Below are positions 10,301-56,002 of a DNA stretch of 64,000 nucleotides, one piece after another. The translations under genes were made by a program, and so were the position numbers. The DNA is taken from assembly GCA_965246965.1 (NCBI GenBank), contig CBDFGD010000002.1, positions 1,899,968 through 1,963,967 of the forward strand, written 5' to 3'. How positions within the stretch are numbered: position 1 is the first letter of the stretch; each line of letters opens with the position of its first letter. Source of the DNA: Vicinamibacteria bacterium (lineage in GTDB: Bacteria; Acidobacteriota; Vicinamibacteria; Fen-336; CBDFGD01). Under the pieces are notes generated by a model, which made no database searches, was not told where the DNA came from, and was given only the letters and a program-made list of their open reading frames with translations.

Positions 10301-10744
10301 CGCCTCGTACTCGCGCTGCTGAAGAAGCAGCTGACCGAGATTCACCCGAGCGCCCACGTCACCCGGGTCCATCTCGATGACGCGACGAAACGCTGCGAGC
10401 GCCGCATCGCTGCGGTTCTGCACCTTGGCGATCAGGCCGATCATGTACTGAGGCTGTGGTGCATCGGGCAGAAGCCGCGCCGCGACCGTCGTCTCCTGGA
10501 GAGAGGCCTCGATGTCCGGAAGATGGTAGAGGGCCAGCGCGAGGTTGAAGCGGGCCATCCCGAGCTGGGGGTTGGCCGCGACGGCCTCGCGGAAGGAGTC
10601 GACCGCCTGCTTGTACTGGAACTGCTCGAGCCACGCGACCCCGCGGTTGTTCGCCCGGTAGGCCAGCTCGCCCGCGGGCGGGGTCTGCTGCGCGGCGGCG
10701 GCGGTGAGTGCGACGGCGGCCGCAAGAATCGTCCTGGTCGTCAT
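7397..10744 (-). CDS. Secreted TPR + FG-GAP/VCBS repeat + ASPIC/UnbV (CRTAC1-like) protein with uncharacterised ~480 aa C-terminal domain
   Basis: ORF 7397..10804; probable start MTTRTILAAAVALTAAAAQQ (signal peptide) at 10744; TPR-like N-terminus, multiple DxDGDGxxDL FG-GAP repeats, UnbV_ASPIC-like block (GIGAKLDVRAGS...VLWPAG), then long C-terminal region (SCPYLFTWNGEKFVF...). Confidence 0.8.
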   Translation of the reverse strand: MTTRTILAAAVALTAAAAQQTPPAGELAYRANNRGVAWLEQFQYKQAVDSFREAVAANPQLGMARFNLALALYHLPDIEASLQETTVAARLLPDAPQPQYMIGLIAKVQNRSDAALAAFRRVIEMDPGDVGARVNLGQLLLQQREYEAAIEALSSAVESEPYNATAVYNLGMALTRGGDRAAGREMIERFQVLRGSGYATLLGQSYLEQGRYAEAIASTGGEADLVDRAVPAVRFTDGTEAAGLKELGGTGRPTLFDVDDDGDLDLLVAGQSGRSVLVNSSGRFSDATRAFGVDASSGAAAALAADVDNDGRTDIFFLSGGRGGSALYKRSDGVAFVDATEASGLSAVTPKASVAALVDADHDGDLDLVVGAPFELWRNDGTGVFSNGSTAAGVGGGVGRGVAVVPTDYDNRRDADLLLVSDGAAPRLMRNLRDETFGDVATSVGLALQGAVSAVAAGDVNKDSFVDFFFATEQASWFASSDGQGSFELLPGPERARGASAAQVLDYDNDGLLDLVALGPDGLAVTRNLGGSWAPVPQATAGLSSFEADAASQMASGDLDGDGDVDLVVSGSGGDLSLLRNDGGNRNAAVLATLAGRVSNRDGIGAKLDVRAGSLHQKLELYAASPAPAPADLLFGLGVRRGADAVRVLWPAGILQTAIDEAGGLLPARLDIQELDRKPSSCPYLFTWNGEKFVFVSDFMGGGEMGYWAAPGIRNHPDPIEYVRLSERQLVERGGSYELRVTNELEEALFFDGVRLHVVAHPGDAEIYPLEGMVGVPHPFKLYTTRARRAPERAHDEAGKDVLAALRAIDGKYVTGFALEPIRGYAKQHALVLDLGDLADDAVLFLNGWTDYAFSSDNLAASQRGLGLQPPRLEVRDGDGQWKTAVAEVGVPVGRPQTVVVDLTGRWLGPEREVRIVTNMRIYWDQALIGSAGENVETRTEVLSPQAAELRFRGFSEELASKGVAPTRFDYDSVTWAAPWKAFPGRYTRLGDVAPLLHPGDDLFVFSRPGDEIALRFDARFLEPLPQGWKRTFLLYTDGFSKEMDINSATPDRLHPLPFHGMTRYPYGPEESFPLTAELAETMERYNTRIVGDEIPSIDWAILAAWRRARIDAGY

Positions 10745-10864
10745 GACATCGATCCTCGCACGAGGAAAGCCGCGACGATAGCGAGGCCGCCGGGGAAGCG
10801 TCAATCGCCACCCAGAACGTGGATGCGAAGCGAGCGGCTCGCGACGCTGTGCTAGCTTGACGAG

Positions 10865-13687
10865 ATGGTCATGGCTCTCAGCGGGCTCGCGTCCGGTGTG
10901 GTGCTCGCGCTCGCTGCGGCCAGCGCGACCTCCGCTGGCGGCGTCGGACAGGCAGCCCGCGGTCCTGATCCTGGGCGCCTGGAGATCGTCGAGGATCTCT
11001 CCGAGTCGCTGGCCAACGACCTGCTCGATCTGTCCGTTTCGACGCGCGATCTCGACCGGGCCCGGATCCGCCAGTTCTTCGGGGGCCAGCTGAGCGCGAA
11101 GCCGTTCCCCTCCGAACCCGGCGCGCTGCGTCCCGAGATCAAGTGGATCAGCAAGCGTGACTGGACCGCGCCGAACGGCTCAGCGGAGACCACGCCCTCT
11201 GGATACCTGGCTGGCTTCTTCCTCTTCCTCGAGCACTTCGCCGAGATCGACGACGCGCGCTTCAAGGTCGTGTTGTCGACGTTCGAGGACTCCGCCAGCG
11301 TGGTGCCGGATGCATCGGAGCCGACCGCGGCGCCCGGCTCACGCGGCGAGGCGACGCTGAAGTTCTTCGTACAGGGCCGAAACGGCGACGGCCAGCGCGA
11401 GTGGGCGCGAGGCGTGGCGGCCGCGCGCTTCGAGCGGGGCGCCGAGCTGTGGCAGTTCACCGCTCTCGAGATCGAATCGCTCCACTCCATGGTGGCGACG
11501 ACGGATCTGTTCTCCGAGGTCGCGCTTCCGGCGGGCGTCGAGGTCTCGCGCCCGGCCTTCGGCCAGCCCGGCAACTCCGGCTTCGTCTGGCACGGCGCCG
11601 CCGCGGGCGACGTCGACGGCGATGGCTGGATCGACCTGTTCGTCACCGGAGCGACGCGCAATTTTCTGTATCTCAACTCGGGCGACGGAACGTTCCGGGA
11701 TGCGTCCGAAGCCGCGGGCGTGGACCTGCTCGTCAGCGGCGTCGCGCCGCTCCTGATCGATCACGACAACGACGGCGACGAAGATGTCTTCATCACCGCC
11801 GTGGGCGATCAGATCCTGCTCGAGAATCGCCTCGTGCCCGATGGCGAGCTGCTCTTCTGGGACGTGTCCCAGGAAACCCGGGTCGCCCAGCCAGCGGTCG
11901 GGTTCAGCGCGACGGCCGCCGACATCAACGCCGACGGCAGGCCGGACATCTACGTCGCGTCGTACAACCACTACGGGCGCATCACACCCGACTCCTGGTT
12001 CCGTGCCACCAACGGGCGCCCCAACCTGCTGTTCGTGTCGCAGCCCGACGGCGGCTATCTCGAGCAGGCCGCGGCCTGGCAGGTGGCCGACTCGCGCTGG
12101 AGCTACGCGGCCGCCTTCGCCGACGTCGACGAGGACGGCCGACCCGATCTCTACGTCGCCAACGACTTCGGTGAGAACGCCCTCTACGTCCACGCCGGAG
12201 ACGCCTTCGTCGACGAGGGAGCCCAGCGCGGCGTGCTCGATCCCGGCAACGGAATGGGGATCTCCTTCGGCGACTACGACAACGACGGGCGGCTCGACCT
12301 GCACGTGACGAACATGTCGTCGACGGCGGGCAACCGGATCCTCAGCCGCCTGTTCCCGGACGCCCAGCCCGACGAGAACGTCCTCGTCAAGCTGGCCTCC
12401 GGAAACAACCTCTACAAGAACGAAGGCGGCGGCGAGTATCGCGACGTCACTGCCGAGGCCGGCGGCTTCTCGTCCGGCTGGGCCTGGGGCGGCGGCTTCG
12501 TCGACTTCGACAACGACGGCTGGGAGGACATCTACACGCCGAACGGCTTCATCTCCGGCAAGTCGATGAAGGACACCTGAAGCCAGTTCTGGCGCCAGGT
12601 CGTGGCGTCCGTGAACGACGAGAAGGAGACGGGCACGCTTCGCGAGGATCAGTCCCAGCTGATGTTCGAGGAGGGCTTCTCGTTCAGCGGTTACGAGAGA
12701 AACCCGCTCCAGCTCAACCTGGGGACCGGCCGCTTCCTAGAGATCTCCGGTGTCTCCGGCATCGACTCGATCGGAGATGGCCGCGGCAGCGTCTTCGCCG
12801 ACTTCGACAACGACGGCGATCTGGACGTCTTCGTCACGGCGCTTCAGGGGCAGGCGCACCTGCTGTTCCGCAACAACGTGGGTCAGGACGGAGGCCACGT
12901 CAGGGTGCTGCTCCAGGGCGACGAGGCGCTGGGACGGGACGTCTTCGGTGCCGTCGTACGACTCGTTACCGCGCGCGGCACGCAGACCAAGATCAAGTCG
13001 GGCGGGTCGGGCTACCTGTCCCAGCACGATCCGCGGCTCCTGTTCGGGATCGGGCGCGGAAAGTCGATCGACGCCATCGAGGTCACCTGGCCCGACGGCG
13101 GGCAGGAGCGCTTCGACGGTCCGGTCAAGAGCGGAGATACGGTTCGCCTGACGCGCGGCTCGGGACGCACGGAGCGGGTCGCGCTGCAGGTCGCGAGGTT
13201 GCCCGACCCGATCGCGCGCAGCGAGCGATTCGCCCTGGCCCTGCATCTCGAGGTCGGGAAGAAACTGCCCGCCATCGAGCTTGCGCGAGACGACGGCACC
13301 ACGATCGAGCTGGTCGATCTGATCCAGCCCGGACGGCGGCTGCTCGTCAACGTCTGGGCGACGTGGTGCCTTCCCTGCGCCCAGGAGATGCCGGAGCTGA
13401 ACGCGTTGCGGCCGGGATTGGCCGCCAACGGCATCGATCTCGTCGGCCTGAACGTCGACACGGACGAAGGAATCGACGTGGTCGGGTTCGCCGGCCGGCT
13501 CGGCGCGACCTACCCGGTCTACGCGGGCGGCATTCCCGCCGTGGAGAAGCTCTACGCCACCGACGAGCTGACGGTGCCGATGTCGTTCATCCTCGACGAC
13601 ACGGGGACCGTGACCGAGCTGATCCCCGGTTGGTCCGAGAAAACGCGGCGGCGCTTCGCGCAGCTGGTCGCGGCGCGCGCGAGGTAG
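10865..13687 (+). CDS. FG-GAP/ASPIC-UnbV (CRTAC1-like) protein fused to C-terminal TlpA-like thioredoxin domain; single in-frame TGA at 12578-12580
   Basis: ORFs 10865..12580 and 12602..13687 are in the same frame separated only by TGA (…SGKSMKDT*SQFWRQVVAS…); FG-GAP repeats (DVDGDGWIDLFV, DHDNDGDEDVFI...), UnbV_ASPIC block (VRLVTARGTQTKIKSGGSGYLSQHDPRLLFGIG...VTWPDG), then redoxin motif WATWCLPC. Confidence 0.75.
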
Positions 13688-16582: not shown

Positions 16583-17059
16583 TCAGGCGTCGGCCTGGAT
16601 CACCGTGAGCTGAAGGGCCCCCGGCCGCTTCGGCACCGCGACCTCATCTTCGTGGCAGAGGATGTCCTGCAGTGTGAGCTGACCGAGCACCTCATCGACG
16701 GCGCCCTGGACCATTCTCCAGACGGATCGCACCGTGCAATCGGTGAGATTGGTGCAGCTCTCCTCGCTTCCGGAGTGGCGATCACAGAAGCTGGGATCGT
16801 AGAGGCGGCCGCCGAGCGCGGCCATCGCCTCGCCGATGTTGACGTCGCCAGGGGCCTGGGCGAGGCGGTAGCCGCCCTGCTGGCCGCGCGTGCTGTCGAC
16901 GAAGCCGTGGGTGCGCAGGACGCGCATCACCTTGGCGACGTTCGCCGAGGAGATGCCCTCGACGCGTGAAAGATCGGCGATCGTCACGCTGCTCTCCGCC
17001 TGGCGCCCCATCTGCACGAGACAGCGCAGGCCGAGCTCTTCGAGCGAGCTGAGCTTCAT
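16583..17059 (-). CDS. Rrf2 family transcriptional regulator (IscR/SufR-like, 3-Cys cluster ligands)
   Basis: 158 aa; Rrf2 wHTH (ADLSRVEGISSANVAKVMRVLRTHGFVDSTRGQQGGYRL) and CDRHSGSEESCTNLTDC Cys motif; last gene of suf operon. Confidence 0.85.
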   Translation of the reverse strand: MKLSSLEELGLRCLVQMGRQAESSVTIADLSRVEGISSANVAKVMRVLRTHGFVDSTRGQQGGYRLAQAPGDVNIGEAMAALGGRLYDPSFCDRHSGSEESCTNLTDCTVRSVWRMVQGAVDEVLGQLTLQDILCHEDEVAVPKRPGALQLTVIQADA

Positions 17060-17066
17060 GCACCCC

Positions 17067-17606
17067 TCACATCAGCCCCAGCTGCAGCCGGGCTGCTTCG
17101 CTCATCATCGACTGGCTCCAAACGGGCTCGAAGGCGATCACCACGCTCGTCTCCCGCACGTCCGGTAGCTCGCGGACCTTCGCCTCGATGTCGTTCTTCA
17201 AGACGTCCCCCATCCCGCAGCCGGGCGCCGTGAGCGTGAAGCTGACCGAGACGCGTTGCCCCCCCTCGCCGCGCTGCTCGACCTCACACGAGTACACCAA
17301 CCCGAGATCGACGATGTTGACCGGGATCTCGGGATCGTAGCAGGTCTTGAGCTGGTCCCAGACCAGATCCTTCAGGCTCTTCCCGGCCTGCTCCTCTTCC
17401 GTGGGACCCTTGTGGCCCTCCTCGCCGATAGCGTCTGCGTCGACACCCTCGATCCGGACCATGTAGCCCATGTCGGTCACGACCGTGTACGTACCGCCGA
17501 GCGACTGCGTCAGGAAGACGGTCGTCCCTGTCTTGAGCGGCACCTTCTCCCCGTACGGGATGGCGGTTGCGACCACCTCCCGAGAGAGCGTTCTGGCTTC
17601 CCTCAT
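17067..17606 (-). CDS. sufT: SufT-like Fe-S assembly protein (DUF59/MIP18 domain)
   Basis: 179 aa; C-terminal DUF59 motif LKTCYDPEIPVNIVDLGLVY; position after sufU. Confidence 0.7.
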   Translation of the reverse strand: MREARTLSREVVATAIPYGEKVPLKTGTTVFLTQSLGGTYTVVTDMGYMVRIEGVDADAIGEEGHKGPTEEEQAGKSLKDLVWDQLKTCYDPEIPVNIVDLGLVYSCEVEQRGEGGQRVSVSFTLTAPGCGMGDVLKNDIEAKVRELPDVRETSVVIAFEPVWSQSMMSEAARLQLGLM

Positions 17607-26625: not shown

Positions 26626-26793
26626 CTAGTGGCCCGTAACAGGGAGGTCGATGCCAGCGAGACCGTCGAGGCGCCCGGATGGCAAGGAGCCGAAGAGGGA
26701 GAATACCGGGAGTATTTGACCGATGAGCGACGCAGCCAAGCGGGATGCATCGGCGGTCGCAACGGTATCGAATCCCCTGTTACAGGCCACTAG
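26626..26793 (-). repeat. Repeat family copy B (inverted relative to A and C)
   Basis: Core 26663-26756 is rc of copy A core; arms gctagtggcccgtaacagggaggtcgatgcc / ggtatcgaatcccctgttacaggccactag are inverted complements but differ in sequence from arms of A and C. Confidence 0.75.
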
Positions 26794-28688
26794 AGAGCAT
26801 TGTGGAGCTGAGCGGCGAACGCTCGCCATTGGATGAGCACACCCCAGGCCACGACGTAGGAGAACGCCACCGTCGCGAGCAGCCACTCAGGACGACTTCG
26901 ATGCGCCAGAGCCCGAAGTGACGCGCCGGCCATCAGGCACACCAGCGGCGTGACGAAAGTGGTCTCGTGGCCGTGCAGAAAGATGTCGGGGAGCTTCGCC
27001 CGCCCGAGCAATAGAAGAAGGTAGGCAAGCCCCCAGCCGACCAGCAGAACCGTGTGATGCCTGGCTCGTCGCAAGGTCACGAAAAGCCCGGCCAGCGCGA
27101 GTAGCGGCAGCAGACCGTCGAAGAAATCACGGGTGCGCGCGCAGGCGACGGCCAGGAACGACTGCGCCTCGTAGCGTCCCGCGGAAGCCGCAGCACCCAC
27201 GTCCAGGCGCGAGAGGATCGCGACGACGATGTCCAGAAAGCGTCCGTAGTAGAGGATCAGCGATGTCGCGGCCCCGGCGACGCCGACAGCGGCGAGCACC
27301 GCGGCCTGGCGGGGTCGCTTCGTCGCCAGCAGCAGAAGCGAGACGGACAGCACCAGCGCTCCGCTGTTGAGCAGGCCCGAAACGTACGCGAGCTGGCTCG
27401 CGGCAACGACGGCCACACCGAGCACGAACGCCGCGCGTCGCTCGATTCGCGGAAGGTTGTACGCCAGCCACAGCAGCAGCACGAGATCGAAGACGTGACC
27501 CAAAAGCGACGGCAGGAAGGCGAAGCTGAGGCGCGTGCCGTAGGTCGGCACGACGACCATCAGCAGAGCCGGCATCAGAGGCGTCACGCCGAGCCGAAGT
27601 GCAAGCGCCCAGACCAGTGCGATCGGAATCACCGAGAGAGCGACGCCCGCGAGCTTCATCGCGGTGATCAGCTCGTCGTACTCGAGCGGAGAGAGGACGA
27701 ACGGAAGATGGAACGCAGGGCTGTACGGGAAGGCGTACGAGCGATCGACGACCTCCAGCTTCCACACGCCGTGCTCGAGGATGGTCGCGGCCGGATCGGA
27801 CGAGAACCCGAGACCCGCCTCGCGAATCTCCTCGGCGAAGCGAGCGTGGGTGTGCAGATCCGGGTAGTAGAAGTCGGGATGGTTGACCGCCGCCGCGCGC
27901 GCCAAAAGCGCCACGCCGACGATCGTGGCGAGGGCTCGCAGCGTCGGGGGCGAGCAGCGAAGCCGCCACCCGACCGCGAGACCCAGCCCGGCGACGACGG
28001 CGAGCAGAAGCGGGACGCCTGTCAGCATCCGGTGGGCCAGCCAAGGATCCGTCACGAGACCCGCGATCACGAAAGCCGCAACGACGCCGGCCTGAGCGGT
28101 GGCCCAGCGCCGCCGCCAACCGGCCAGGCGCAAGACGAGGAAGCAGATGGCGACGAGCGCCGCCGACCCGAGACGGGCGCGAGGGGCCAGTCGGACCCGC
28201 GCGCGCTCGCCCAGCTCGAAGACCACCCGGTCGAGCCTCAGGCCCAACCGCTGACGGTCGTGGGAGTCGACCCGGAAGCGCAGGGAGAGGGGCGTCTCGG
28301 GCAGCGCGGCGAGATCCACGCGCCGTTCCTCGACTCGCCCGCCGCGACACGTGAACCGGTCGATGTCCGCGCCGGCGAGCGAGACGTCGACGACCGCGGT
28401 CTCGGGCAACACCCGCGCAAACCGGTACGACACGGCAATCGGCCCGCCCTCCACGAGGAGCGGCAACGCGACCGTCGCGTCGTAGCCGGTCCAGTGGGTC
28501 CCGACCCGGTCCCGGACCTCGAAGCGAGGCGTGAACCCGGTCGTCAACGCCGAGTCGCCGGGACCGAGGTTCCCGACGATCGTCGAGGGGCCTCGCGCAC
28601 CGTGTGACGCCGCGGCGATCGTCAGCGCGACGAGCACCGCTCCCGGCCAGGCTTCGGCCAGCGCGCGGCGAGCCCGAGGGGAACTCAT
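26790..28688 (-). CDS. Polytopic integral membrane protein (N-terminal periplasmic domain + ~12 TM; glycosyltransferase-C-like?), downstream of sat/cysC
   Basis: 632 aa ORF, highly hydrophobic C-terminal two-thirds; no confident family assignment from sequence alone. Confidence 0.5.
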   Translation of the reverse strand: MSSPRARRALAEAWPGAVLVALTIAAASHGARGPSTIVGNLGPGDSALTTGFTPRFEVRDRVGTHWTGYDATVALPLLVEGGPIAVSYRFARVLPETAVVDVSLAGADIDRFTCRGGRVEERRVDLAALPETPLSLRFRVDSHDRQRLGLRLDRVVFELGERARVRLAPRARLGSAALVAICFLVLRLAGWRRRWATAQAGVVAAFVIAGLVTDPWLAHRMLTGVPLLLAVVAGLGLAVGWRLRCSPPTLRALATIVGVALLARAAAVNHPDFYYPDLHTHARFAEEIREAGLGFSSDPAATILEHGVWKLEVVDRSYAFPYSPAFHLPFVLSPLEYDELITAMKLAGVALSVIPIALVWALALRLGVTPLMPALLMVVVPTYGTRLSFAFLPSLLGHVFDLVLLLWLAYNLPRIERRAAFVLGVAVVAASQLAYVSGLLNSGALVLSVSLLLLATKRPRQAAVLAAVGVAGAATSLILYYGRFLDIVVAILSRLDVGAAASAGRYEAQSFLAVACARTRDFFDGLLPLLALAGLFVTLRRARHHTVLLVGWGLAYLLLLLGRAKLPDIFLHGHETTFVTPLVCLMAGASLRALAHRSRPEWLLATVAFSYVVAWGVLIQWRAFAAQLHNAL

Positions 28689-32148: not shown

Positions 32149-34537
32149 ATGAAGCTCCCCGCCTACGAGAAACTCGGCGCGTTCTATCTCGGGAGACTCT
32201 TCGACGCCGACCGGGATCGAGTCACCGACGAGGAATATCTCTACGACTCGATGGACCTGACGACTCACGCCGTGTGCCTGGGGATGACCGGCAGCGGCAA
32301 GACCGGGCTCTGCGTGACGCTGCTGGAAGAGGCTGCCATCGACGGCGTGCCGGCGATCGTGCTCGACCCGAAGGGCGATCTCGGCAACCTGTTGCTCACG
32401 TTTCCGAAACTCGAAGCCGCCGATTTTCGCCCCTGGGTCGATCCGGCGGTCGCGGCACGCGAGGGCGAGTCTGTCGACGAGCACGCCGCGTCGACCGCCG
32501 CACGCTGGCGCAAGGGACTCACCGATTGGGACCAGGACGGGGCGCGGATCGAGCGGCTGCGAAACGCCGCCGAGTGTGCCATCTACACGCCGGGCAGCTC
32601 GGCCGGGCTGGGCCTCGCAGTCCTTTCTTCATTCGCCGCGCCCCCGCCAGGCCAGCGCGAGGATTCGGACGAGCTGCGGGAGCGCGTGAGCGCGGCGGCC
32701 TCGAGCCTGCTGGCGCTGCTCGGCATCGGGGCCGACCCGATTCAGGCTCGCGAGCACATCCTGCTCTCCAACATCTTCAAACATCGTTGGCAAGCGGGTG
32801 AGGACCTGGACCTCGAGACCCTGATCAGAGGGGTCCAGTCCCCTCCCTTCGAGAAGGTGGGCTTCCTCGATCTCGAGGCCTTCTTCCCGGCCAAGGATCG
32901 CTTCCAGCTCGCGATGGCGCTGAACAGCCTCGTGGCCTCGCCCGGATTCGCCGCCTGGTTCGAGGGTGAGCCACTCGAGATCGAGCGACTGCTCTGGACC
33001 CGGGACGGGCGACCGCGGATCGCCATTCTGTCGATCGCCCATCTGAGCGATGTCGAGCGCATGTTTTTCGTGACGCTGCTGCTGAACGAGATGGTGACCT
33101 GGATGCGCGCTCAGCCCGGGACCGGGAGTCTCAGAGCGCTGCTTTATATGGACGAGGTGTTCGGCTACTTGCCGCCGACGGCGAATCCGCCATCCAAAAC
33201 CCCTCTGCTGACGTTGCTCAAGCAGGCCCGCGCCTGTGGCATCGGCGTCGTTCTCGCCACGCAGAACCCGGTCGACCTCGACTACAAGAGCCTCTCCAAC
33301 TCGGGGACCTGGTTGATCGGACGACTCCAGACCGAGCGCGACCAGGCGCGTGTCCTCGACGGTCTCGCGGGATCGGGGCTGGCCCTCGACCGTTCGCAAG
33401 TCGAGGGCATGCTCGCCCGTCTGAAGAAGCGCGTGTTCCTGGTCAACAACGTGCACGACGAGGAACCGACGCTGATCCACAGCCGCTGGGCGATGTCCTA
33501 CCTGCGGGGGCCGCTGACGCGCTCCCAAATCGAGACATTGATGCGGGGCCGCGGCGACGAAGACCGAACGCCGGCGCCGACAACCGACTCGATCTGACTC
33601 GAGCGCGCTCCGACGGACACCGGGGCCGAGCGTCCCGTTCTCCCGGCCGCTCGGTGAAGACGAGCGGCTCGTCTACCGTCCCGCGCTTCTCGCGACGGCG
33701 CGTGTCCACTTCGTGCGCCGCCGGCCCGAGATCGACGCGTGGGTCGAGACCAAGCTGCTGTCCGGACTCGACCCCGACTCTGTCGATGAAGCCTGGGAGG
33801 GGGCCGAGCGACTGAAGGCCGAGCCGGAGCTGCGCGGCGAAGGCGAGCAGGGCGCGGCCTTCGCCGAGCTCCCTGCTGCGGCGGCCCGATCGAAGAGCTA
33901 CGCTGGCTGGACCCGCGAGCTGAAGTCCTTCCTCCACCGGACGGAAAGGCTGCCGATTCTGACTTGCTCCGACCCGAAGGCGAGCTCCGATCCCGGCGAG
34001 GACCGGGCGGACTTCGAGCGTCGCCTTCGCCAGCTGGCTCGCGAAGCGCGCGACGTGAAGCTGGCCAGGCTGGAAAAGAGCTACGCGCCGAAACTGGATC
34101 GCATCCGCGACAAGATCCGACGCGCGGAGGAGCGCGTGGTACGCGAGACGGACCAGTACGAACACCAGAAACGCCAGAGCACGATATCGGTGGGCGCCAC
34201 GATGCTGGGCGCGTTGCTCGGCAGGAAAAAGCTGAGCCTCGGCACGGTCGGGCGCGCCACGACCGCGGTTCGTGGCATCGCGCGAATCGACCGCGAGGAG
34301 GGCGACATCGCCCGGGCCGAGATCGTTCTCGAGGAAGAGCAGGCCAAGCTCGCCGAGCTGGAGGAGGAGTTTCAAGGCGAGCTCGACAAGATTCGCGACT
34401 CGAACGTCGCGGGTGCCTTCGTTCTGGACGAGCTTTCGGTGAAGCCGCGTAAGGCGGACATCGGCGTGAGCAACCTCTGCCTCGCCTGGGCGCCCTGGAG
34501 AGTCGACCCTCAGGGAATCGCCGAGCCCGCCTTCTAG
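32149..34537 (+). CDS. HerA/DUF853-like P-loop ATPase with long C-terminal coiled-coil extension (frameshift near 33590-33600) or two genes
   Basis: ATG 32149; GMTGSGKTG Walker [17 protein letters not shown]; frame-2 coding continues without start codon from 33542 into ORF 33713..34537 (charged coiled-coil). Confidence 0.55.
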
Positions 34538-34890
34538 TCCCTCAGGCGCAGCGCGTCCCACACGGACGCGAGCCAGAGCGCTGCGAGCACTGCGAACCAG
34601 CCCCACAGCGATACGACGACCCGTCCCTGAATCTCGTGAGCGAGCTGGAAGATCTCAGCAACACCCAGCAGGCTCGGATCTGGAGGCAGGCTCCTGAGGA
34701 CCTCGCTGAACAAACGGCGAAGCAGGGCAAGCAGGGCCACTCCGGAGCCGATCGCAAAGGCCAGCCCGCGAGCTCGCCGGCCGTAGGCGAGCTGCCCCGC
34801 ACCCGGGAAGACGAGCCCCGAGAGCAGCGCGGCCCGCAGACGCGGATCGCGCGTCCACGGGCTGGCTTTGGCTGGCTCTTCAATGTTCAT
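34534..34890 (-). CDS. Small membrane protein, hypothetical
   Basis: Start MNIEEPAKASPW within ORF 34534..34932; two TM segments. Confidence 0.4.
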   Translation of the reverse strand: MNIEEPAKASPWTRDPRLRAALLSGLVFPGAGQLAYGRRARGLAFAIGSGVALLALLRRLFSEVLRSLPPDPSLLGVAEIFQLAHEIQGRVVVSLWGWFAVLAALWLASVWDALRLRD

Positions 34891-34979
34891 CTGGACCGCT
34901 GGACAACTTCCACCGCCTGGACGAAGATGCACGCTACCTCAGCGCCCTCAGGACCCCCAAAAGACGACTCGAGGCGGAG

Positions 34980-37900
34980 ATGGCCGACCCGACCCCCAAC
35001 CTGCTGGCGGCCGAGAACCTGGCCGTCGCCGAACAGATCTACGAGTCGTACGCCCGCGACCCGACGTCGGTCGCGCCCGAGTGGCGAAGCTATTTCGATG
35101 CGCTGGCCGACGATGGGCCGTCGAGTGCTGTGGCGGGCGCCCGGGACCCGAGGCCCGCCGCAAGCGCCCCGCCGCCGGTGCCGCCGCCAGTGCCGCCGGC
35201 GGCCACAGCGCTGCCCAACCGGGTCGGCACGGAAGCCCCTCCAGAGTTTCTCTCTCGAATCGCCCTGTTCCGTGACCTGGGCCCCGGGGATCAGGCGCTT
35301 CTGGCCGGGATCATTCGCGAGGTCCGCCTCGCCCCGGGCGACGTGCTGTTCCGCGCGGGGGATCCGGGCGACGCGCTCTTCGCTGTGATCTCTGGGTCGC
35401 TGCGCGTCGAGCGCGAGGGGCGGGTGCTGGCGACGCTCGGAGAGGGCCAGGTCACAGGCGAGATGGCGGTGATCGACAAGAAGCCGCGCTCCGCGGACGT
35501 CATCGCCCACACCGAAACGGTGCTGCTCGAGCTGCCGGCGGCGGATTTCGACAACCTCCTCGATAACCACGGCAAGGTCGCACGCGGAATGCTGCTGGTC
35601 ATGGCGGAGCGACTTCGCCTCTCGAACGCGCAGCAGGAAAAGGTGGATGCGTTGGTACGAGCGTATCGCACGCGCGGCCATCGAATCGCTCGGCTCGATC
35701 CGCTCGGCCGCGGCGCTACGAGCCATCGCGGGCTCGAGCTCGACTATCACGGTTTGATCTCCGCAGACCTGGACCTGCCGTTTTCGATCTCATCCGGCAA
35801 CGGCAGCCAAACGATTCCGTTGCGCGACATCATCGAGCGCCTTCGCAATACCTATTGCCGGTCGATCGGCGTCCAGTACATGCACATCGACAGCCAACGC
35901 GTTCGAGACTGGCTGCAGGCGCGTATGGAGTCCAGCCAGAATCACCTCCAGCTCGAGCGTGACGAGCAGCTGCGGATCTTCACCAAGCTGACGGACGCCG
36001 AGTTCTTCGAGACTTTCGTCCACAAGAAGTTCCTCGGCGCCAAGCGCTTCTCGCTCGAGGGTGCCGAGAGCGTGATTCCGTTGCTCGACCTCGCGATCGA
36101 GTCGGCCGCCGGGCACGGCGTCGCGGACATGGTGATCGGCATGGCGCACCGCGGCCGCCTCAACGTTCTCGCCAACGTCATGGGCAAGAGCCCGCGCCGC
36201 ATCTTCGAGGAGTTCAAGGACGCGGACGCCGAGCGGCACTTCGGCGGCGGCGGCGACGTCAAGTACCACCTCGGCTACAGCGCCGACCGCGAGTGTGCGA
36301 ACGGGCGCGGCATCCACCTGTCACTCTGCTTCAACCCGAGCCACCTCGAGTTCGTCGGACCGGTCGTGCTCGGTCGGGTGCGCGCCAAGCAGCACGAGCG
36401 GGGCGACGAGGAACGCCGCCAGGTGCTGGCACTGATCATTCATGGCGACGCGGCGTTCGCGGGCCAGGGTGTCGTGCAGGAGATGCTCAACATGAGCGAT
36501 CTGCCCGGCTACGACACCGGCGGGACCGTTCACGTGATCATCAACAACCAGGTCGGGTTCACGACACCACCCGAGCAGTCGCGCTCCAGCCAGTACGCGA
36601 CCGACATCGCCCGCACCCTCGACACGCCGATATTCCACGTCAACGGCGAGGATCCGGAGGGCGTCGCGCAGGCGATCGCGCTCGCGATGGACTTTCGCGC
36701 GGAGTTCAAGCGCGACATCGTCCTCGACATGTACTGCTACCGCCGTCACGGGCACAACGAGGGCGACGAGCCGACCTTCACTCAGCCGGTCATGTACCGC
36801 TGGATCAAGCAGCAGCCACCCGTTCGCAACGGCTATCTCGAGAACCTCCTCAAGCTCGGCGAGGTCAGTCGCGAAGATGCCGAGGCGATCGCCCGGGCGA
36901 GCCAGGAGCGGCTGGAGAAGGCGCTCGAACAGGTCGGCAGCGGCGGCGAAGAGGAGGAGCTGGAGGTCTCGCGCTCCATCTGGCAGGGCTACGTAGGGGG
37001 TGAGGACGCAGCAGTCGCCGACACGGAGACCGGCGTGGAAGCCTCCAAGCTCAGCCGCCTGCTCGAGCGGCTGACGCGCGTGCCCGAAGAGTTCCACGTC
37101 CACCCGAAGAGCGCGCGCATGCTCGACCAGCGGCGCGAGATGGCCGCCGGCAAGCGACCCCTCGACTGGAGCGCGGGCGAGGCACTCGCCTTCGCCAGCC
37201 TGTTGGCGGAGGGAGCCCACGTCCGCCTGAGCGGCCAGGACAGCGGGCGCGGCACCTTCAGCCACCGCCACGCCGAGCTGCACGACAATGAGGACGGTCA
37301 CGTCTACACGCCCTTGCAGCACGTCGAAGCTGGCCAGGCCCCCTTCTCCGTATACAACAGCCCGCTCTCCGAGATCGCCGTGCTGGGCTTCGACTGGGGC
37401 TACAGCCTGGATACACCTGGCGCCCTGGTCATCTGGGAGGCTCAGTTCGGCGATTTCGCCAACGTCGCCCAGGTGATCGTGGACCAGTTCATCTCGAGCG
37501 CCGAGCAGAAGTGGAGCCGGCTCAGCGGCCTCGTCCTGCTGCTGCCCCACGGCTTCGAGGGGCAGGGCCCCGAGCACTCGAGCGCGCGCCTGGAACGCTT
37601 CCTCGGGATGGCCTCGCAAGACAACATCCAGGTGATCACGCCCACGACGCCTGCGCAGATCTTCCACGCGCTGCGTCGCCAGATCCGGAGACCGCTGCGC
37701 AAGCCGCTCGTCGTGATGGCACCGAAGAGCATGTTGCGTCACCCGCTGGCAACCTCCCGGCTCGAGGAGCTGGCCAGCGGACGTTTCCAGCGCGTGATCG
37801 ACGATCCGGCCGCGCCGCCGCCGGCGGCCACCCGGAGCATCGTGATGTGCGGGGGCAAGCTCTACTACGACCTGGCGCAGGCGAGAGAGCGGCTGGGTGT

Positions 37901-38195
37901 GAGCGACGTCGCGCTGATCCGCATCGAGCAGCTGTACCCCTTCCCGAGCCAGCGGATCACCGAGCTGCTGGAGCCCTACCCGACGTCGACAGAGGTGATC
38001 TGGACCCAGGAGGAGCCGATCAACATGGGGGCGTGGGCCTTCATTCGGCTCGCCGTCCCACCGGCGATCTGGGGGGGCCGCGACATCGGCTGCGTGGCGC
38101 GCTCCGACGCGGCGAGCCCGGCATCGGGCTCCTCCGCGAGCCACAAACGCGAGCAGCAGCTTCTCGTAGAGCAGGCGCTCAAGCCCGGCAACTGA
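34980..38195 (+). CDS. sucA: 2-oxoglutarate dehydrogenase E1 component with inserted cyclic-nucleotide-binding domain (~aa 88-215)
   Basis: Colinear with E. coli SucA from YRTRGHRIARLDPLG to C-terminus (MAHRGRLNVLANV, GDAAFAGQGVV, HGHNEGDEP, LLPHGFEGQGPEHSSARLERFL); inserted segment has cNMP phosphate-binding cassette GEMAVIDKKPRSADVIA. Confidence 0.9.
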   Translation: MADPTPNLLAAENLAVAEQIYESYARDPTSVAPEWRSYFDALADDGPSSAVAGARDPRPAASAPPPVPPPVPPAATALPNRVGTEAPPEFLSRIALFRDLGPGDQALLAGIIREVRLAPGDVLFRAGDPGDALFAVISGSLRVEREGRVLATLGEGQVTGEMAVIDKKPRSADVIAHTETVLLELPAADFDNLLDNHGKVARGMLLVMAERLRLSNAQQEKVDALVRAYRTRGHRIARLDPLGRGATSHRGLELDYHGLISADLDLPFSISSGNGSQTIPLRDIIERLRNTYCRSIGVQYMHIDSQRVRDWLQARMESSQNHLQLERDEQLRIFTKLTDAEFFETFVHKKFLGAKRFSLEGAESVIPLLDLAIESAAGHGVADMVIGMAHRGRLNVLANVMGKSPRRIFEEFKDADAERHFGGGGDVKYHLGYSADRECANGRGIHLSLCFNPSHLEFVGPVVLGRVRAKQHERGDEERRQVLALIIHGDAAFAGQGVVQEMLNMSDLPGYDTGGTVHVIINNQVGFTTPPEQSRSSQYATDIARTLDTPIFHVNGEDPEGVAQAIALAMDFRAEFKRDIVLDMYCYRRHGHNEGDEPTFTQPVMYRWIKQQPPVRNGYLENLLKLGEVSREDAEAIARASQERLEKALEQVGSGGEEEELEVSRSIWQGYVGGEDAAVADTETGVEASKLSRLLERLTRVPEEFHVHPKSARMLDQRREMAAGKRPLDWSAGEALAFASLLAEGAHVRLSGQDSGRGTFSHRHAELHDNEDGHVYTPLQHVEAGQAPFSVYNSPLSEIAVLGFDWGYSLDTPGALVIWEAQFGDFANVAQVIVDQFISSAEQKWSRLSGLVLLLPHGFEGQGPEHSSARLERFLGMASQDNIQVITPTTPAQIFHALRRQIRRPLRKPLVVMAPKSMLRHPLATSRLEELASGRFQRVIDDPAAPPPAATRSIVMCGGKLYYDLAQARERLGVSDVALIRIEQLYPFPSQRITELLEPYPTSTEVIWTQEEPINMGAWAFIRLAVPPAIWGGRDIGCVARSDAASPASGSSASHKREQQLLVEQALKPGN
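35240..35630 (+). other. cNMP-binding (CAP effector) domain embedded in SucA
   Basis: FRDL…GDVLFRAGDPGDALFAVISGSLRV…LGEGQVTGEMAVIDKKPRSADVIAHTETVLLELPAADFDNLL. Confidence 0.75.
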
Positions 38196-38207: not shown

Positions 38208-39347
38208 ATGGCTATTGGAATCAAGGTCCCGAGCGTCGGCGAGTCGATCACGGAGGTCACGGTCGCCGAGTGGCTCAAGAAGGTGGGCGACTCGGTGGCC
38301 GAGGACGAGCCCGTCGTGACGCTGGAGACCGACAAGGCCAACGTAGACGTGCCCGCTCCAGCGGCCGGTCGTCTGGCGCGGATTCTCAAAGACGTCAATG
38401 ACACGGCACAGGTGGGCGAGGCTCTCGCGGAACTCAAGCCTCTCGGTGCCGGAGCGACTCCGGAGCTACCGAAGACCGCTCCGCCGCCTGCGGCGCCAGC
38501 GTCGCCCACCGCAGTGGCGCCGACACCGCCGCCCGCTCCGGTCCAGGCCGCGCCACCGCCGCCGCCGCCGCCCGCGACCTTGCCACCGGTCGCTCAGAAG
38601 CCGAAGCAGCCGGCACGGCCGACCCCTGCGGCTCCCGCTCCCGGTTCCCGCGAGGTGCGGCGCGTCGCGATGACGCCGATCCGGCGCCGCATCGCCGAGC
38701 GCCTGGTCCAGGCGCAACAGAACGCGGCGATGCTCACCACCTTCAACGAGATCGACATGTCCGCGGTGATGGCGCTGCGCAGAGAGCACAAGGAGGGGTT
38801 CCTGCGAAAGCACGGGATCAAGCTCGGCTTCATGTCGTTCTTCATCAAGGCGGCCATCGCGGGGTTGCGTGAGGTGCCCGAGGTCAACGCAGAGATCCGC
38901 GACCGGGACATCGTCTATCGCGACTACTACGACGTCTGTGTCGCCGTCGATACCGGGCGCGGCCTCGTGGTACCCGTGATCCGCAACGCCGAGACGATGA
39001 GCTTTGCCGAGCTCGAGTACTCGATCGTCGACTTCTCGACCCGCGCGAAGGAGAACCGCCTCAAGCCCGACGAGCTGCAGGGCGGGACGTTCACGATCAG
39101 CAACGGCGGCGTGTTCGGCTCGCTGCTCTCGACTCCGATCCTCAACCCGCCGCAGAGCGGCATCCTGGGAATGCACTCCATCCAGAGCCGGGGTGTCGAC
39201 GTAGCGGGGCAGCTCGAGCTGCGCCCCATGATGTACGTGGCGATGAGCTACGACCACCGCGTCGTGGACGGCCGCGGCGCCGTCACGTGCCTGCGGCGCA
39301 TCAAGGAATGCATCGAAGAGCCGGCCCGGCTGCTGGTGGACGTCTAG
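38208..39347 (+). CDS. sucB: Dihydrolipoyllysine-residue succinyltransferase (E2)
   Basis: Lipoyl domain (VTLETDKANVDVPA), Pro/Ala linker, catalytic DHRVVDG motif. Confidence 0.9.
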   Translation: MAIGIKVPSVGESITEVTVAEWLKKVGDSVAEDEPVVTLETDKANVDVPAPAAGRLARILKDVNDTAQVGEALAELKPLGAGATPELPKTAPPPAAPASPTAVAPTPPPAPVQAAPPPPPPPATLPPVAQKPKQPARPTPAAPAPGSREVRRVAMTPIRRRIAERLVQAQQNAAMLTTFNEIDMSAVMALRREHKEGFLRKHGIKLGFMSFFIKAAIAGLREVPEVNAEIRDRDIVYRDYYDVCVAVDTGRGLVVPVIRNAETMSFAELEYSIVDFSTRAKENRLKPDELQGGTFTISNGGVFGSLLSTPILNPPQSGILGMHSIQSRGVDVAGQLELRPMMYVAMSYDHRVVDGRGAVTCLRRIKECIEEPARLLVDV

Positions 39348-40541
39348 TCTGGCTGGCGCGAGGGGCTCGGCTTCGGGCGACCGATCAGGTAGCCCTGGAG
39401 TAGATCGCAGCCCAGTTCGGCGAGCGCGTCTCGCTCGGCGGCCGTCTCGACGCCCTCGGCGACGACCTGGATCCCCAGCTCCCTGCACAATCCGGTCATC
39501 GAGGCGACGAGCCTTTGCTTTATCGGATCCGCATCGACTCCGCGCACGAGCTGCATGTCGATCTTCACGACCTCAGGATCGAGAGCCGCGAAGCTCGTGA
39601 GGCCCGCGTACCCGGCGCCCAGATCGTCGAGCGCGATGCGGTAGCCGCGCCGCCGCAGAGCCGCGATGCGCGACTCCAGATCATCGATCCCCTCGAGCGA
39701 GCTGCGCTCGGTGATCTCCAGGACGATCGATTTCGCCCACACCTCGATCGGGACGATCGACTCGCCGAGCCCTGGATCCGCCAGGTCGAGGGGGTGGAGG
39801 TTGAGGAACAGGATCACATTGCGTGCGGCCGGAGGCGAGGCGGCGACGCGTTCGCGGACCAGCCGCCCGAGACGGTCCACGGCGTCGAGTCGCTCGGCTG
39901 CGTCGAACAGAGCGGCCGGGCCGGGCAGGGCATCACCCGTGGTCCGCGTCAGCGCCTCGTAGCCGTAGAGGCTTGCCGTCCGATGCGTAAACGACCGGCT
40001 GATAGGCGATCCAGACGCTCTCGACCGCCTTCTCGAAGGCGTGCTCCAGTGAAGCTCGATCCACGATGGGAGTGTTGCCGAAGCCCAGGTAGCCGGCCGC
40101 CTCGCGCTTCCACTTCGCCAGGCGATGGACTCGGATCGCGGCCTCGACGGCGTCGCGGAGTCGCTCCGGGGAGACCGGCTTGACGAGATAGCGGAGCGCC
40201 CCCAGCTCGACGGCTTCGATGACCGTCTCTCGCGCGGGGCCACCCGTCATCAGGAGCACCGGAACGTCCTGTTCGCGCTCACGCAGCGTACGCAGCAACT
40301 CGATCCCGTTCAGGTCGGGCATCGTGATCTCGCTCACCACGACGTCCACGTCCCGATCGGCGACGAGCGCCAGAGCCGAGTGCCCGTCTTCTGCTTCGAT
40401 GACCTCGTAGCCGGCGTCCCGGAGCAGCTCGGAAACCAGGGAGCGGACGGCCTGGTCGTCGTCGACGACCAGGACTTTGCCCTTCAGGCCGATCGATCTC
40501 GAGTCGTGAGGCGGCATGTCGGCTGTTGTTTTCGAGGCCAT
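39344..40541 (-). CDS. Response regulator receiver + EAL domain protein (c-di-GMP phosphodiesterase), frameshift near 39975-39990
   Basis: ORF 39933..40541 REC domain (VLVVDDD…SEITMPDLNG…LMTG…KP) ending …YQPVVYASDG; EAL continues in ORF 39344..40243 frame (SLYGYEALTR…EITE…DDLGAGY…VAEGVET). Confidence 0.75.
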
Positions 40542-40622: not shown

Positions 40623-42046
40623 ATGCACATCGCCCGCGTCGTCGTCATCACCTTCGGAATCGCGGCCCACGCCACGGCAACGCTCGCGCAGACCGAGATG
40701 GGCGCCTTCATCGACGCCAATGCCGATGTTTTCGCGAGAGCCGCGCGGGCCATATGGGACTGGGCGGAGGTCGGGTACCAGGAAGAGCGGAGCACGCGAT
40801 TGCTCCAGGAGACGCTGGCCGAAGCCGGGTTCCGGGTCGAGCCTGGCGTCGCCGGAATGCCCACGGCGTTCGTCGCCGAGTACGGAGAGAGGGGGGCGGT
40901 GGTGGCCCTGCTCGCTGAGTTCGACGCCCTGCCCGGCATCAACCAGAGTGACGCGCCGGAACGCAGCGAGATTCCCGGCAAGACGGCGGGGCACGCCTGT
41001 GGCCATCATCTTTTCGGCGTCGGATCCATGGCGGCCGCCATGGCGGTTCGCGACTGGCTGGCCAGCGACGGAAGGCCCGGGCGTGTTCGCGTCTACGGAA
41101 CGCCCGCCGAGGAAGGGGGAGCCGGCAAGGTCTACATGGTCCGGGCCGGGATCTTCGACGACGTCGACGCGGTGCTCACCTGGCATCCGTCGAGCGTCAA
41201 CGACGCCGCCCGAGCGGCTCGCTCGCGAACAAATCGGCCAAGTTCCGCTTCAAAGGGCTCTCCGCCCACGCGGCGGCGGCGCCGGAGCGCGGCCGCTCTG
41301 CTCTCGACGGCGTCGAGGCGATGAACGTCATGGTCAACATGATGCGCGAGCACGTTCCCCAGCAGACGCGCATCCACTACGTGATCACGCGGGGCGGCTC
41401 GGCACCGAACGTCATCCCCGATTTCGCCGAGGTCTACTACTACGTCCGCCACCCGGAGCCCACGCAGGTAAAGGAACTGTTCGAGCGAGTCGTCAAAGCC
41501 GCCGAAGGTGCTGCGCTCGGGACAGGCACTTCCGTGAGCTACGAGGTGATTCACGGGATCTACAACAAGCTGCGGAACGACACCCTGGCGATGCGCATGG
41601 ACGCCAATCTCCGCAGCGTCGGCGGGGTGCACTACGATGCCGCCGAGATCGCGTTCGCCATCAAGCTACGCGCCAGCCTTCCCGCCGACGCGCCGCCGCT
41701 CGAGAGCGCCGCACAGATCCACGCCTTCGAGTACCGGCCGGGCTCGGGCTCCACGGACGTCGGAGACATCAGCTGGATGACGCCGACGACGAGCCTCGCC
41801 ACCGCCACCTGGGTCCCCGGCACCTCCTCCCACTCGTGGCAGCCGGTCGCGGCGGGAGGGACGGGCATCGGTTTGAAGGGGATGCTGGTGGCCGCGAAGA
41901 CACTCGCGCTCACGGCGCGCGACCTGCTGAGCGATCCGGATCTGCTCGCGAGGGCGCGCGCGGACTTCGAGAAACGTCGGGGTGACGACTTCGTCTACGA
42001 CCCGTTGCTGGGTGATCGAGCGCCGCCCCTCGACTACCGGCGCTGA
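40623..42046 (+). CDS. M20 family metallopeptidase/amidohydrolase (AbgB-like), signal peptide, frameshift near 41205-41225
   Basis: ORF 40623..41324 (HACGHHLFGVGSM, GTPAEEGG) joins ORF 41321..42046 frame, which extends upstream as SLANKSAKFRFKGLSAHAAAAPERGRSALDGVEAMNV. Confidence 0.7.
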
Positions 42047-55297: not shown

Positions 55298-55870
55298 TTA
55301 GCGACGCTTCGCAGCCGCTTCCAGACCGACGCCGTAGCCGACGAAGATGAAGCTACCGGCGTCCTCGTACGGCCCGATCTGAACCGTGGCCGCCACGCGA
55401 CCCGTCAGCCCGTCGCGCAGTACGAGCTGATAGCTGTGCCCCTCGGACGTCGACCAGTCGACGACGAACAGCGCCGCGTTCCTGTCGAGCGGCAGGCGGA
55501 CGGGTCCCCCGGTCTCCGTCAGCTCCGTCTCGGCAACGACTGGAGTACCGTCGTGCTCCACGCGCCGCAGCTTCAAGAACACGATGTCGTGGTGAGCGGG
55601 CGAGTCCACGGCGAGCTCGGGCGCGAAGACCGGGACCCGCGCCACGCCCACCAGGTTGGAAGACGGAGGCGGGCTGGCGAGGAAAGGGACGGTCAGAGGC
55701 GACAGCTCGCCGAGTCCCTCGCGAAGCGCGCCCAGCCCGTTTTCGAAAGCCGCCATGCGCTCCTGGAGCATCGCCTCGAGCGCCCCGAGTCGCCCTTCGA
55801 GGCGCGCGACCTGGAGCTGGCTCTCGGGTGTCTGAATCGCCAGAACAGCGACGAGTACGAACCCGTTCAT
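55298..55870 (-). CDS. Hypothetical membrane-anchored protein
   Basis: Start MNGFVLVAVLAIQ within ORF 55298..55993; no family assignment. Confidence 0.4.
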   Translation of the reverse strand: MNGFVLVAVLAIQTPESQLQVARLEGRLGALEAMLQERMAAFENGLGALREGLGELSPLTVPFLASPPPSSNLVGVARVPVFAPELAVDSPAHHDIVFLKLRRVEHDGTPVVAETELTETGGPVRLPLDRNAALFVVDWSTSEGHSYQLVLRDGLTGRVAATVQIGPYEDAGSFIFVGYGVGLEAAAKRR

Positions 55871-56002
55871 CTGGAACCTCTCTCTCGTGCCTCCGAGTCG
55901 AAGCAACGGGTCTCGACGGGCAGAGCGCGACTGAGCCGAGCATGCCTCACGCCGGCGGGCTGCCGCAAGCCCAACGTCGATGCGGCCCGCCACCAGGAGG
56001 CC

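Follow-up and report, generated by a model that had tools for sequence, protein, structure and literature searches.

A cyclic-nucleotide-binding domain inserted in the 2-oxoglutarate dehydrogenase E1 subunit (SucA) of Vicinamibacteria and other uncultured bacteria: a candidate sensor joined to the enzyme core

Does the sucA gene of a Vicinamibacteria bacterium encode an enzyme of central metabolism that senses a cyclic nucleotide directly? The gene lies in a 64,000-nucleotide stretch of DNA (Acidobacteriota; GenBank assembly GCA_965246965.1, contig CBDFGD010000002.1), all of which we refer to as the window, and its product is the E1 subunit (E1o) of a 2-oxoglutarate dehydrogenase complex (OGDH). 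An earlier sequence-only reading had placed a SucA there with a domain for binding cyclic nucleoside monophosphates (cNMPs) inserted between its N-terminal helix and its catalytic core, and had taken this for an unusual arrangement that would imply direct second-messenger control over the tricarboxylic acid (TCA) cycle. We find that this cyclic-nucleotide-binding (CNB) domain is present and well conserved, that it is predicted to run into the enzyme core through one continuous helix, and that the fusion recurs in at least three phyla.

The open reading frame (ORF) runs exactly as the sequence-only reading had it, and Pfam recognizes five domains in its product in the order 2-oxogl_dehyd_N (PF16078; aa 9-45, 39 bits), cNMP_binding (PF00027; aa 115-197), E1_dh (aa 348-654), Transket_pyr (aa 727-920), and OxoGdeHyase_C (aa 926-1067). 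The match to PF00027 spans profile positions 2-89 of 89 with a score of 77.2 bits (E 9.5e-22) against a gathering cut-off of 27.5 bits, and the earlier assignment of the domain is correct. A segment singled out beforehand for this comparison, 35240-35630, is out of frame; its in-frame equivalent is 35232-35654. Both NCBIfam models for SucA score well above their cut-offs (PRK09404, 1228 bits versus 764; TIGR00239, 1096 bits versus 770), the alignments starting only at aa 215, and aa 215-1067 align with residues 85-930 of Escherichia coli SucA (2JGD; 876 bits). Because residue 215 aligns with E. coli residue 85, ≈169 residues fill the place of the ≈38-40-residue E. coli linker, in agreement with the short E. 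coli counterpart described earlier. The motifs quoted in that description are all located, with WRSYF at aa 35, GEMAVIDKKPRSADVIA at aa 160-176, and YRTRGH at aa 229.

Downstream of the insertion, the catalytic motifs MAHRGRLN (aa 388), KYHLG (aa 428), GDAAFAGQG (aa 489), NNQVGFTT (aa 522), and LPHGFEGQGPEHSS (aa 855) are intact in the window protein and invariant across an alignment of 54 sequences. From the literature, we take the residues of these motifs (GDG-type, NN, and the histidines of MAHRGRLN, KYHxG, and LPHG) to serve in the binding of thiamine diphosphate (ThDP) and in the active site. Foldseek superimposes the modeled core on SucA crystal structures with a TM score of 0.93 (target-normalized). 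Judged by its sequence, the window SucA is an intact E1o subunit with predicted enzyme activity. At its N terminus, it retains the helix whose equivalent in human E1o, residues 18-40, binds the succinyltransferase component E2o and the E3 component (PMC8146983; PMC11436768).

The inserted domain carries what a ligand pocket of the CNB type calls for. Its closest sequences in the PDB are apicomplexan PKG, PKA-R, Epac, MlotiK1, and mycobacterial (Mtb) CRP, with E values from 4e-23 to 1e-11. The phosphate-binding cassette has both the Gly-Glu pair that contacts the ribose and the Arg-Ser/Thr/Ala-Ala element that contacts the phosphate, as a canonical CNB domain requires; it fits canonical bacterial consensus motifs such as GEMALLDGGPRSADAVA and is unlike the non-canonical types of NtcA, FNR, FixK, and NnR (Kannan et al. 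2007, PMC2246266, Table 1). The earlier description of a textbook cassette and β-roll is borne out by these residues and by the strands of an AlphaFold2 (AF2) model. Across 120 family sequences, the cassette Gly, Glu, Arg, and Ala are present in all 120, the Asp in 116, the Pro in 115, and the Ser in 106. An alignment-free extraction at fixed register from 158 members gave the cassette Arg in 156 and Gly-Glu in 153, in a domain whose pairwise identity within the family averages 42% and falls to a minimum of 26%. From this pattern, we predict that the CNB domain is probably a real, functional sensor.

How the domain is attached on its two sides is indicated by the AF2 model (mean pLDDT 83, pTM 0.79) and by spacing within the family. 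The CNB region is modeled at pLDDT 77-92, with seven strands within aa 113-186, a cassette helix at aa 161-166, and helices at aa 187-196 and 198-236, and the last of these is one unbroken helix that serves as the C-helix of the CNB domain and also as the first helix of the core. On the N-terminal side, aa 45-83 fall below pLDDT 50, as expected of a disordered tether, and the N-terminal helix and the cassette stand 95-180 aa apart, depending on the family member. On the C-terminal side, the distance from the cassette Arg to YRxRGH is exactly 59 aa in 120 of 120 sequences. The CNB domain is coupled rigidly to the core at its C-terminal end and hangs from a floppy tether of variable length at the other. 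Relatives that lack a CNB domain have a linker of ≈45 aa. A conserved GPSFRPxSIFNPP, placed after the docking helix and before the CNB domain or the core, is shared by most family members and the CNB-less relatives of PVC type; this element is lost in the tether of the window SucA (aa 46-87, 35115-35240), which instead contains GPSSAVAGARDP...

Selection was estimated region by region from a comparison of the window sucA with one relative of 86% identity. The dN/dS ratio was 0.21 for the N-terminal helix (aa 1-45), 0.49 for the Pro/Ala linker (aa 46-91), 0.12 for the CNB domain (aa 92-197), 0 for the junction helix (aa 198-236; dN = 0, dS 1.19, 39 codons), and 0.105 for the E1 core (aa 237-1071). 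In this sequence pair, purifying selection on the CNB domain is as strong as that on the catalytic core. Pairwise identities of the CNB domain and of the core are correlated with r = 0.82, as would be expected of a single ancestral fusion passed on together with the gene.

We searched public protein collections with the full-length window SucA, to which one entry (P0074) is 100% identical. All 120 of the listed matches, from 100% down to 52% identity, combine PF00027 with the four OGDH domains. A second full-length search, begun from the most divergent member (P0107), again gave the same architecture in 120 of 120 listed matches, 38 of them new, so that at least 158 distinct clusters at 90% identity contain a CNB-SucA, and the family boundary was not reached. 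The only organisms named are metagenome-assembled genomes (MAGs): those of Acidobacteriota, with Vicinamibacteria and other groups such as Thermoanaerobaculia ("Ca. Multivoradales"), of Myxococcota (also labeled "Deltaproteobacteria"), and of Acidiferrobacterales (Gammaproteobacteria). The nearest named relatives of the window protein, at ≈64% identity, belong to Vicinamibacteria. A shorter search with the N-terminal 330 aa had returned two fusion fragments and suggested rarity, a picture overturned by the full-length searches; it missed even the identical P0074 and apparently drops candidates much longer than the query.

A DNA signature consisting of the cassette motif, a 165-nt gap, and YRxRGH matched once in the window, in 10 of 10 fusion loci, and in none of 73 loci of other CNB proteins. 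In a metagenome collection, it retrieved 45 further contigs with GC contents from 0.50 to 0.73, all 45 of which were verified as fusions; this number is a lower bound because only exact residues and CGN arginine codons match the signature. A profile census of the insert and junction over 1.84 billion representatives gave 4071 matches at E ≤ 1e-30, which serves as an upper bound only because proteins with 2-16 tandem CNB domains add up scores. When genome contigs were scanned with cassette-only patterns, 7 fusions appeared among the 80 loci listed. Microvirga matches that seemed to span the junction turned out to be plain CRP/FNR regulators and were set aside.

The fusion is a widespread lineage feature of uncultured soil and sediment bacteria and not a one-off, since the same architecture is common over a large clade spanning at least three phyla. 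On this point, the sequence-only reading has to be amended. A CNB domain on E1 is not unusual in distribution, occurring in at least 158 clusters and on 45 contigs, but it has gone without annotation as such, because the sources call these proteins only "2-oxoglutarate dehydrogenase E1 component." The fusion is already in the databases, as a Pfam architecture within precomputed annotations, yet is unnamed and uncharacterized. We found no description of a CNB-OGDH fusion in the literature, full text included, although the coverage of that search was incomplete and the result is absence of evidence only. Nor is there a dehydrogenase fusion among the 30 CNB families of the 2007 survey (PMC2246266).

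What might such a domain do? We think it somewhat likelier true than false that the E1o of the SucA-SucB complex is modulated by a cNMP through the inserted CNB domain, with ligand, transmission, and direction as presumed here. An ancestral fusion would have put a canonical CNB domain into the linker between the helix that docks on E2o and E3 and the ThDP-dependent core. The domain would bind cAMP or cGMP, and binding would reposition its B and C helices, as ligand bound at the cassette does in characterized CNB proteins (PMC2246266). Since the first core helix is a continuation of the C-helix, this movement would be passed to the N-terminal region of E1o; a C-helix of fixed length that enters the enzyme is the arrangement expected of a lever. 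The movement may then shift E1o between less and more active states, and alternatively or additionally, cNMP binding may alter how E1o engages the E2o core. As to sign, our best guess is that the cNMP would activate by relieving autoinhibition, since CNB-fused enzymes usually work in this way; PKA, PKG, and Epac serve as the analogy. That E1o might be switchable at all has precedents, again by analogy, in the switching of the actinobacterial OdhA/KGD enzymes and in the Ca2+ site of animal OGDH. For the direct control of the TCA cycle that had been proposed, the idea of a functional sensor gains strength from the cassette, the selection, and the rigid coupling, whereas the control itself is still something we infer.

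Several observations pull against modulation by a cNMP. Seven of the 158 members have degenerate cassettes (Glu to Gly or Asp, or Arg to His) and still keep the domain and the 59-residue register; therefore, part of the domain's role may be ligand-independent. Position 14 of the cassette is a near-invariant Asp where many cAMP binders carry Thr or Ser, so that the ligand may be cAMP, cGMP, or another. No adenylate or guanylate cyclase was found among the ≈40 ORFs scanned in the window, itself a small sample of the genome. The AF2 model is of a monomer, whereas E1o is a dimer, and the dN/dS values come from a single pair of sequences. The members with degenerate cassettes are P0368, P0380, P0381, P0382, P0372, P0374, and P0375, and their cassettes are of the types GGMSF... 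(Glu lost), GD..., and Arg to His.

It is conceivable, but in our view unlikely, that the domain is a CNB-fold sensor for some other ligand, such as AMP or ADP, a nucleoside, cyclic di-GMP (c-di-GMP), or a metabolite like 2-oxoglutarate, which NtcA senses. OGDH would then answer to energy or carbon-nitrogen status and not to a messenger made by a cyclase. The fold has been re-used for other ligands in the NtcA, FNR, FixK, and NnR families (PMC2246266), and trypanosome PKA is reported to use nucleosides (PMC10959531). The Asp conserved in 116 of 120 sequences, at a site that is Thr or Ser in most cAMP binders, would suit such a ligand, as would the lack of a cyclase in the window and the presence nearby of c-di-GMP enzymes (REC-EAL and cNMP-GGDEF). 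However, the families that switched ligand have lost Gly-Glu, Pro-Arg-Ser/Thr-Ala, or both, and these are near-invariant in CNB-SucA; a canonical bacterial family in the same survey has the PRSAD variant in its consensus (GEMALLDGGPRSADAVA), every one of the best sequence matches is a cNMP binder, and 64 kb is far too little to exclude cyclases elsewhere in the genome. A 2-oxoglutarate sensor of NtcA type was considered as the lead reading and rejected, as the cassette does not resemble that of NtcA.

We hold it to be quite improbable that the domain is a ligand-independent structural module, that is, a spacer, a dimerization element, or a docking element that sets the geometry of E1o on E2o or recruits a protein, with the cassette conserved for the stability of the fold and not for signaling. 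The domain does sit in the region that governs complex assembly, its C-helix resembles the long dimerizing C-helix of CRP-type proteins in an enzyme that is an obligate dimer, and the cassettes lacking Glu or Arg leave the domain in exact register. Set against this, residues whose only role is ligand contact are kept in >95% of members, across lineages whose CNB domains otherwise share just 26-42% identity; a dN/dS of 0.12 would be needless in a pure spacer, and the CNB-less relatives manage with their short linker. An artefact, be it a chimera of the assembly or an ORF mis-called so as to join sucA with a CNB gene, is rejected with near certainty: two neighboring genes in the window do carry frameshifts, but sucA is a single uninterrupted ORF with the coding signature of high G+C at third codon positions (GC3), the same architecture recurs, gap-free through the junction, in independent protein clusters and metagenome contigs from many studies, and relatives are colinear with the window at the DNA level.

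The features of the locus are collected in Table 1. The operon partner sucB matches NCBIfam PRK05704 (489 bits, cut-off 449) and the Pfam domains Biotin_lipoyl and 2-oxoacid_dh, and it adjoins the fused sucA in 8 of 10 related loci. In a marine TARA relative (L081), the fused sucA has no sucB next to it, and ≈5.5 kb downstream is the gene for a free-standing CNB protein of 170 aa (16782-17294, - strand). The cNMP-GGDEF gene at 60772, which the sequence-only reading had cited as a sign of cNMP signaling in this genome, is real (PF00027, 71 bits; GGDEF, 169 bits). Its product, a diguanylate cyclase by its GGDEF domain, has the canonical cassette GEMAMLEGQVRSASVKA and a CNB domain 35% identical to that of SucA, and its sequence leads us to predict cross-talk in this organism by which cNMP would act on c-di-GMP.

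Table 1. Window coordinates of the suc operon, the parts of its SucA, and a second predicted cNMP receptor
Feature	Coordinates	Strand	Basis
sucA, complete 2-oxoglutarate dehydrogenase E1 (1071 aa) with inserted CNB domain	34980..38195	+	ORF, NCBIfam, Pfam
N-terminal helix, homologous to the E1o peptide docking on E2o/E3, aa 9-45	35004..35114	+	PF16078; AF2 helices 11-26, 33-44
Pro/Ala-rich flexible tether, aa 46-87	35115..35240	+	Low pLDDT, dN/dS, variable length
CNB domain, aa 88-197 (N-terminal helices, β-roll, cassette, B helix)	35241..35570	+	PF00027, AF2
Phosphate-binding cassette GEMAVIDKKPRSADVIA, aa 160-176	35457..35507	+	Motif, family conservation
Continuous helix, aa 198-236, CNB C-helix to first E1 core helix, YRTRGH at its end	35571..35687	+	AF2, fixed spacing
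E1o catalytic core (predicted ThDP-dependent decarboxylase)	35688..38192	+	Alignment to E. coli SucA, Foldseek, motifs
sucB, E2o dihydrolipoyl succinyltransferase, operon partner	38208..39347	+	12 nt downstream of sucA; NCBIfam, Pfam
cNMP-binding + GGDEF protein, second predicted cNMP receptor in the genome	60772..61839	+	PF00027 71 bits, GGDEF 169.5 bits

Two neighboring genes immediately downstream of sucB carry one frameshift each: a gene for a REC-EAL c-di-GMP phosphodiesterase (39356-40484, - strand; frameshift near 39972) and one for an M20 peptidase (40623-42043, + strand; frameshift near 41210). In the 86%-identical relative (L082), both are intact, with products of 409 and 474 aa, respectively, and the frameshifts are either assembly indel errors or signs of pseudogenes. 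Between a DUF481 gene and sucA lie a gene for a HerA/DUF87-like ATPase (32152-33597, + strand) and then an ORF of 274 aa with no Pfam match (33713-34537, + strand); this region looks like a local insertion or replacement, its place in the syntenic L082 being taken by small ORFs and a response regulator. Divergent from sucA is a 132-aa ORF of high GC3 with no Pfam match (34534-34932, - strand), which looks like a small membrane protein. Two further ORFs of high GC3, of 632 aa (26790-28688, - strand) and 231 aa (55298-55993, - strand), likewise match nothing in Pfam. Elsewhere, at 7397-12580 and 12602-13687, the window holds a cluster of large FG-GAP/TPR repeat proteins (1135 and 571 aa), beside which an FG-GAP/ASPIC-UnbV protein is fused to a peroxiredoxin-like Redoxin domain, an unusual combination. 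Rfam gave no matches, and a promoter and terminator scan around the suc operon gave nothing useful.

OGDH is the branch point between energy generation and nitrogen assimilation. To our knowledge, it is tightly controlled in every lineage studied: by transcription in E. coli, by forkhead-associated (FHA) proteins and kinases in Actinobacteria, and by Ca2+ and ADP in animals. A cNMP receptor in E1o would be a fourth, mechanistically distinct control, and the first case of a 2-oxoacid dehydrogenase complex with its own receptor for a nucleotide second messenger. In its widest form, which we are as ready to doubt as to believe, the proposal is that cAMP or cGMP binds E1o directly and sets OGDH flux post-translationally in Acidobacteriota, Myxococcota, and some Gammaproteobacteria, and that the first core helix is a convergent regulatory hot spot. 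That hot spot would be used in three ways: by a CNB domain here, by an E2o fusion with FHA proteins and acetyl-CoA in Actinobacteria, and by a Ca2+ site in animals. Acidobacteria and Myxococcota are abundant soil phyla whose cNMP biology is, as far as we know, largely unknown, and modulation of E1o by a cNMP would give signaling by cAMP or cGMP a concrete metabolic output in them. If confirmed, a junction in which a helix of fixed length links sensor to enzyme could serve as a template for ligand-switchable ThDP enzymes; if cNMPs have no effect, what is left is an uncharacterized lineage-specific domain in an otherwise ordinary SucA. The fusion joins two known kinds of protein, the CNB-regulated enzyme and the E1o with an N-terminal accessory domain, in a pairing that is uncharacterized.

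Compared with the SucA proteins of E. coli and Vibrio (2JGD, 6KM9), the window protein shares a catalytic core of 45-46% identity (TM 0.93), the N-terminal docking helix, and the sucA-sucB operon, but between docking helix and core, it has 169 aa including the CNB domain where E. coli has ≈38 aa. In E. coli, cAMP acts on OGDH only through transcription, by CRP activation of the sdh-suc operon; in the window protein, by contrast, the predicted sensor is part of the enzyme.

The actinobacterial enzymes OdhA and KGD likewise carry an additional fused domain at this N-terminal junction, where window aa 220 corresponds to OdhA 372 and KGD 391, and acetyl-CoA and OdhI/GarA shift them between a resting and an active conformation (PMC10415282). 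There, however, the fused domain is a catalytic E2o-like acyltransferase, and signals arrive through a separate FHA protein under Ser/Thr kinases and through acetyl-CoA. The window SucA is not of this type: the model PRK12270 (NF008907) aligned only over profile positions 397-1240 of 1241, and there is no match to PF00198. In animal OGDH, Ca2+ acts directly on E1 through a DADLD motif (PMC7969005); in the human sequence as deposited, we located it 17 residues past the YQIRGH tyrosine. This second-messenger site lies in the loop after the first core helix, the same helix that the CNB C-helix feeds in the window SucA; it differs in being a five-residue acidic motif and not a folded domain, and in having Ca2+ as its messenger. 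The window SucA has no such Ca2+ site, as the equivalent position reads ATSHR.

A CNB domain inserted in a non-signaling bacterial protein is also seen in the Family 2B encapsulin shell (PMC11550324), to which there is a weak match (NF041163, 31 bits), but the host there is of the unrelated HK97 fold and only its CNB domain is similar. Regulators of the CRP/FNR type resemble the window protein in the long C-helix of their CNB domain and in the style of their cassette (GEIALLDGQPRSADAVA in Microvirga, for example); their C-helix enters a helix-turn-helix (HTH) DNA-binding domain, whereas that of the window protein enters the E1o core. Membership in that group was rejected, with no HTH found by Pfam and only 30 bits to PRK11753 (CRP; cut-off 266), in the CNB region only. 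The same applies to the cAMP-dependent acetyltransferase Pat, a protein of CNB and GNAT domains, whose model NF058543 matched only aa 95-195, with 30.5 bits where its cut-off is 460. Like the CNB-regulated enzymes as a group (PKA and PKG, Epac, and mycobacterial Pat), the window SucA has a canonical CNB domain of similar sequence covalently coupled to an effector, which in those enzymes the domain controls by moving its B and C helices (PMC2246266), and it differs from them in that its effector is a decarboxylase of central metabolism that belongs to a 2-oxoacid dehydrogenase complex.

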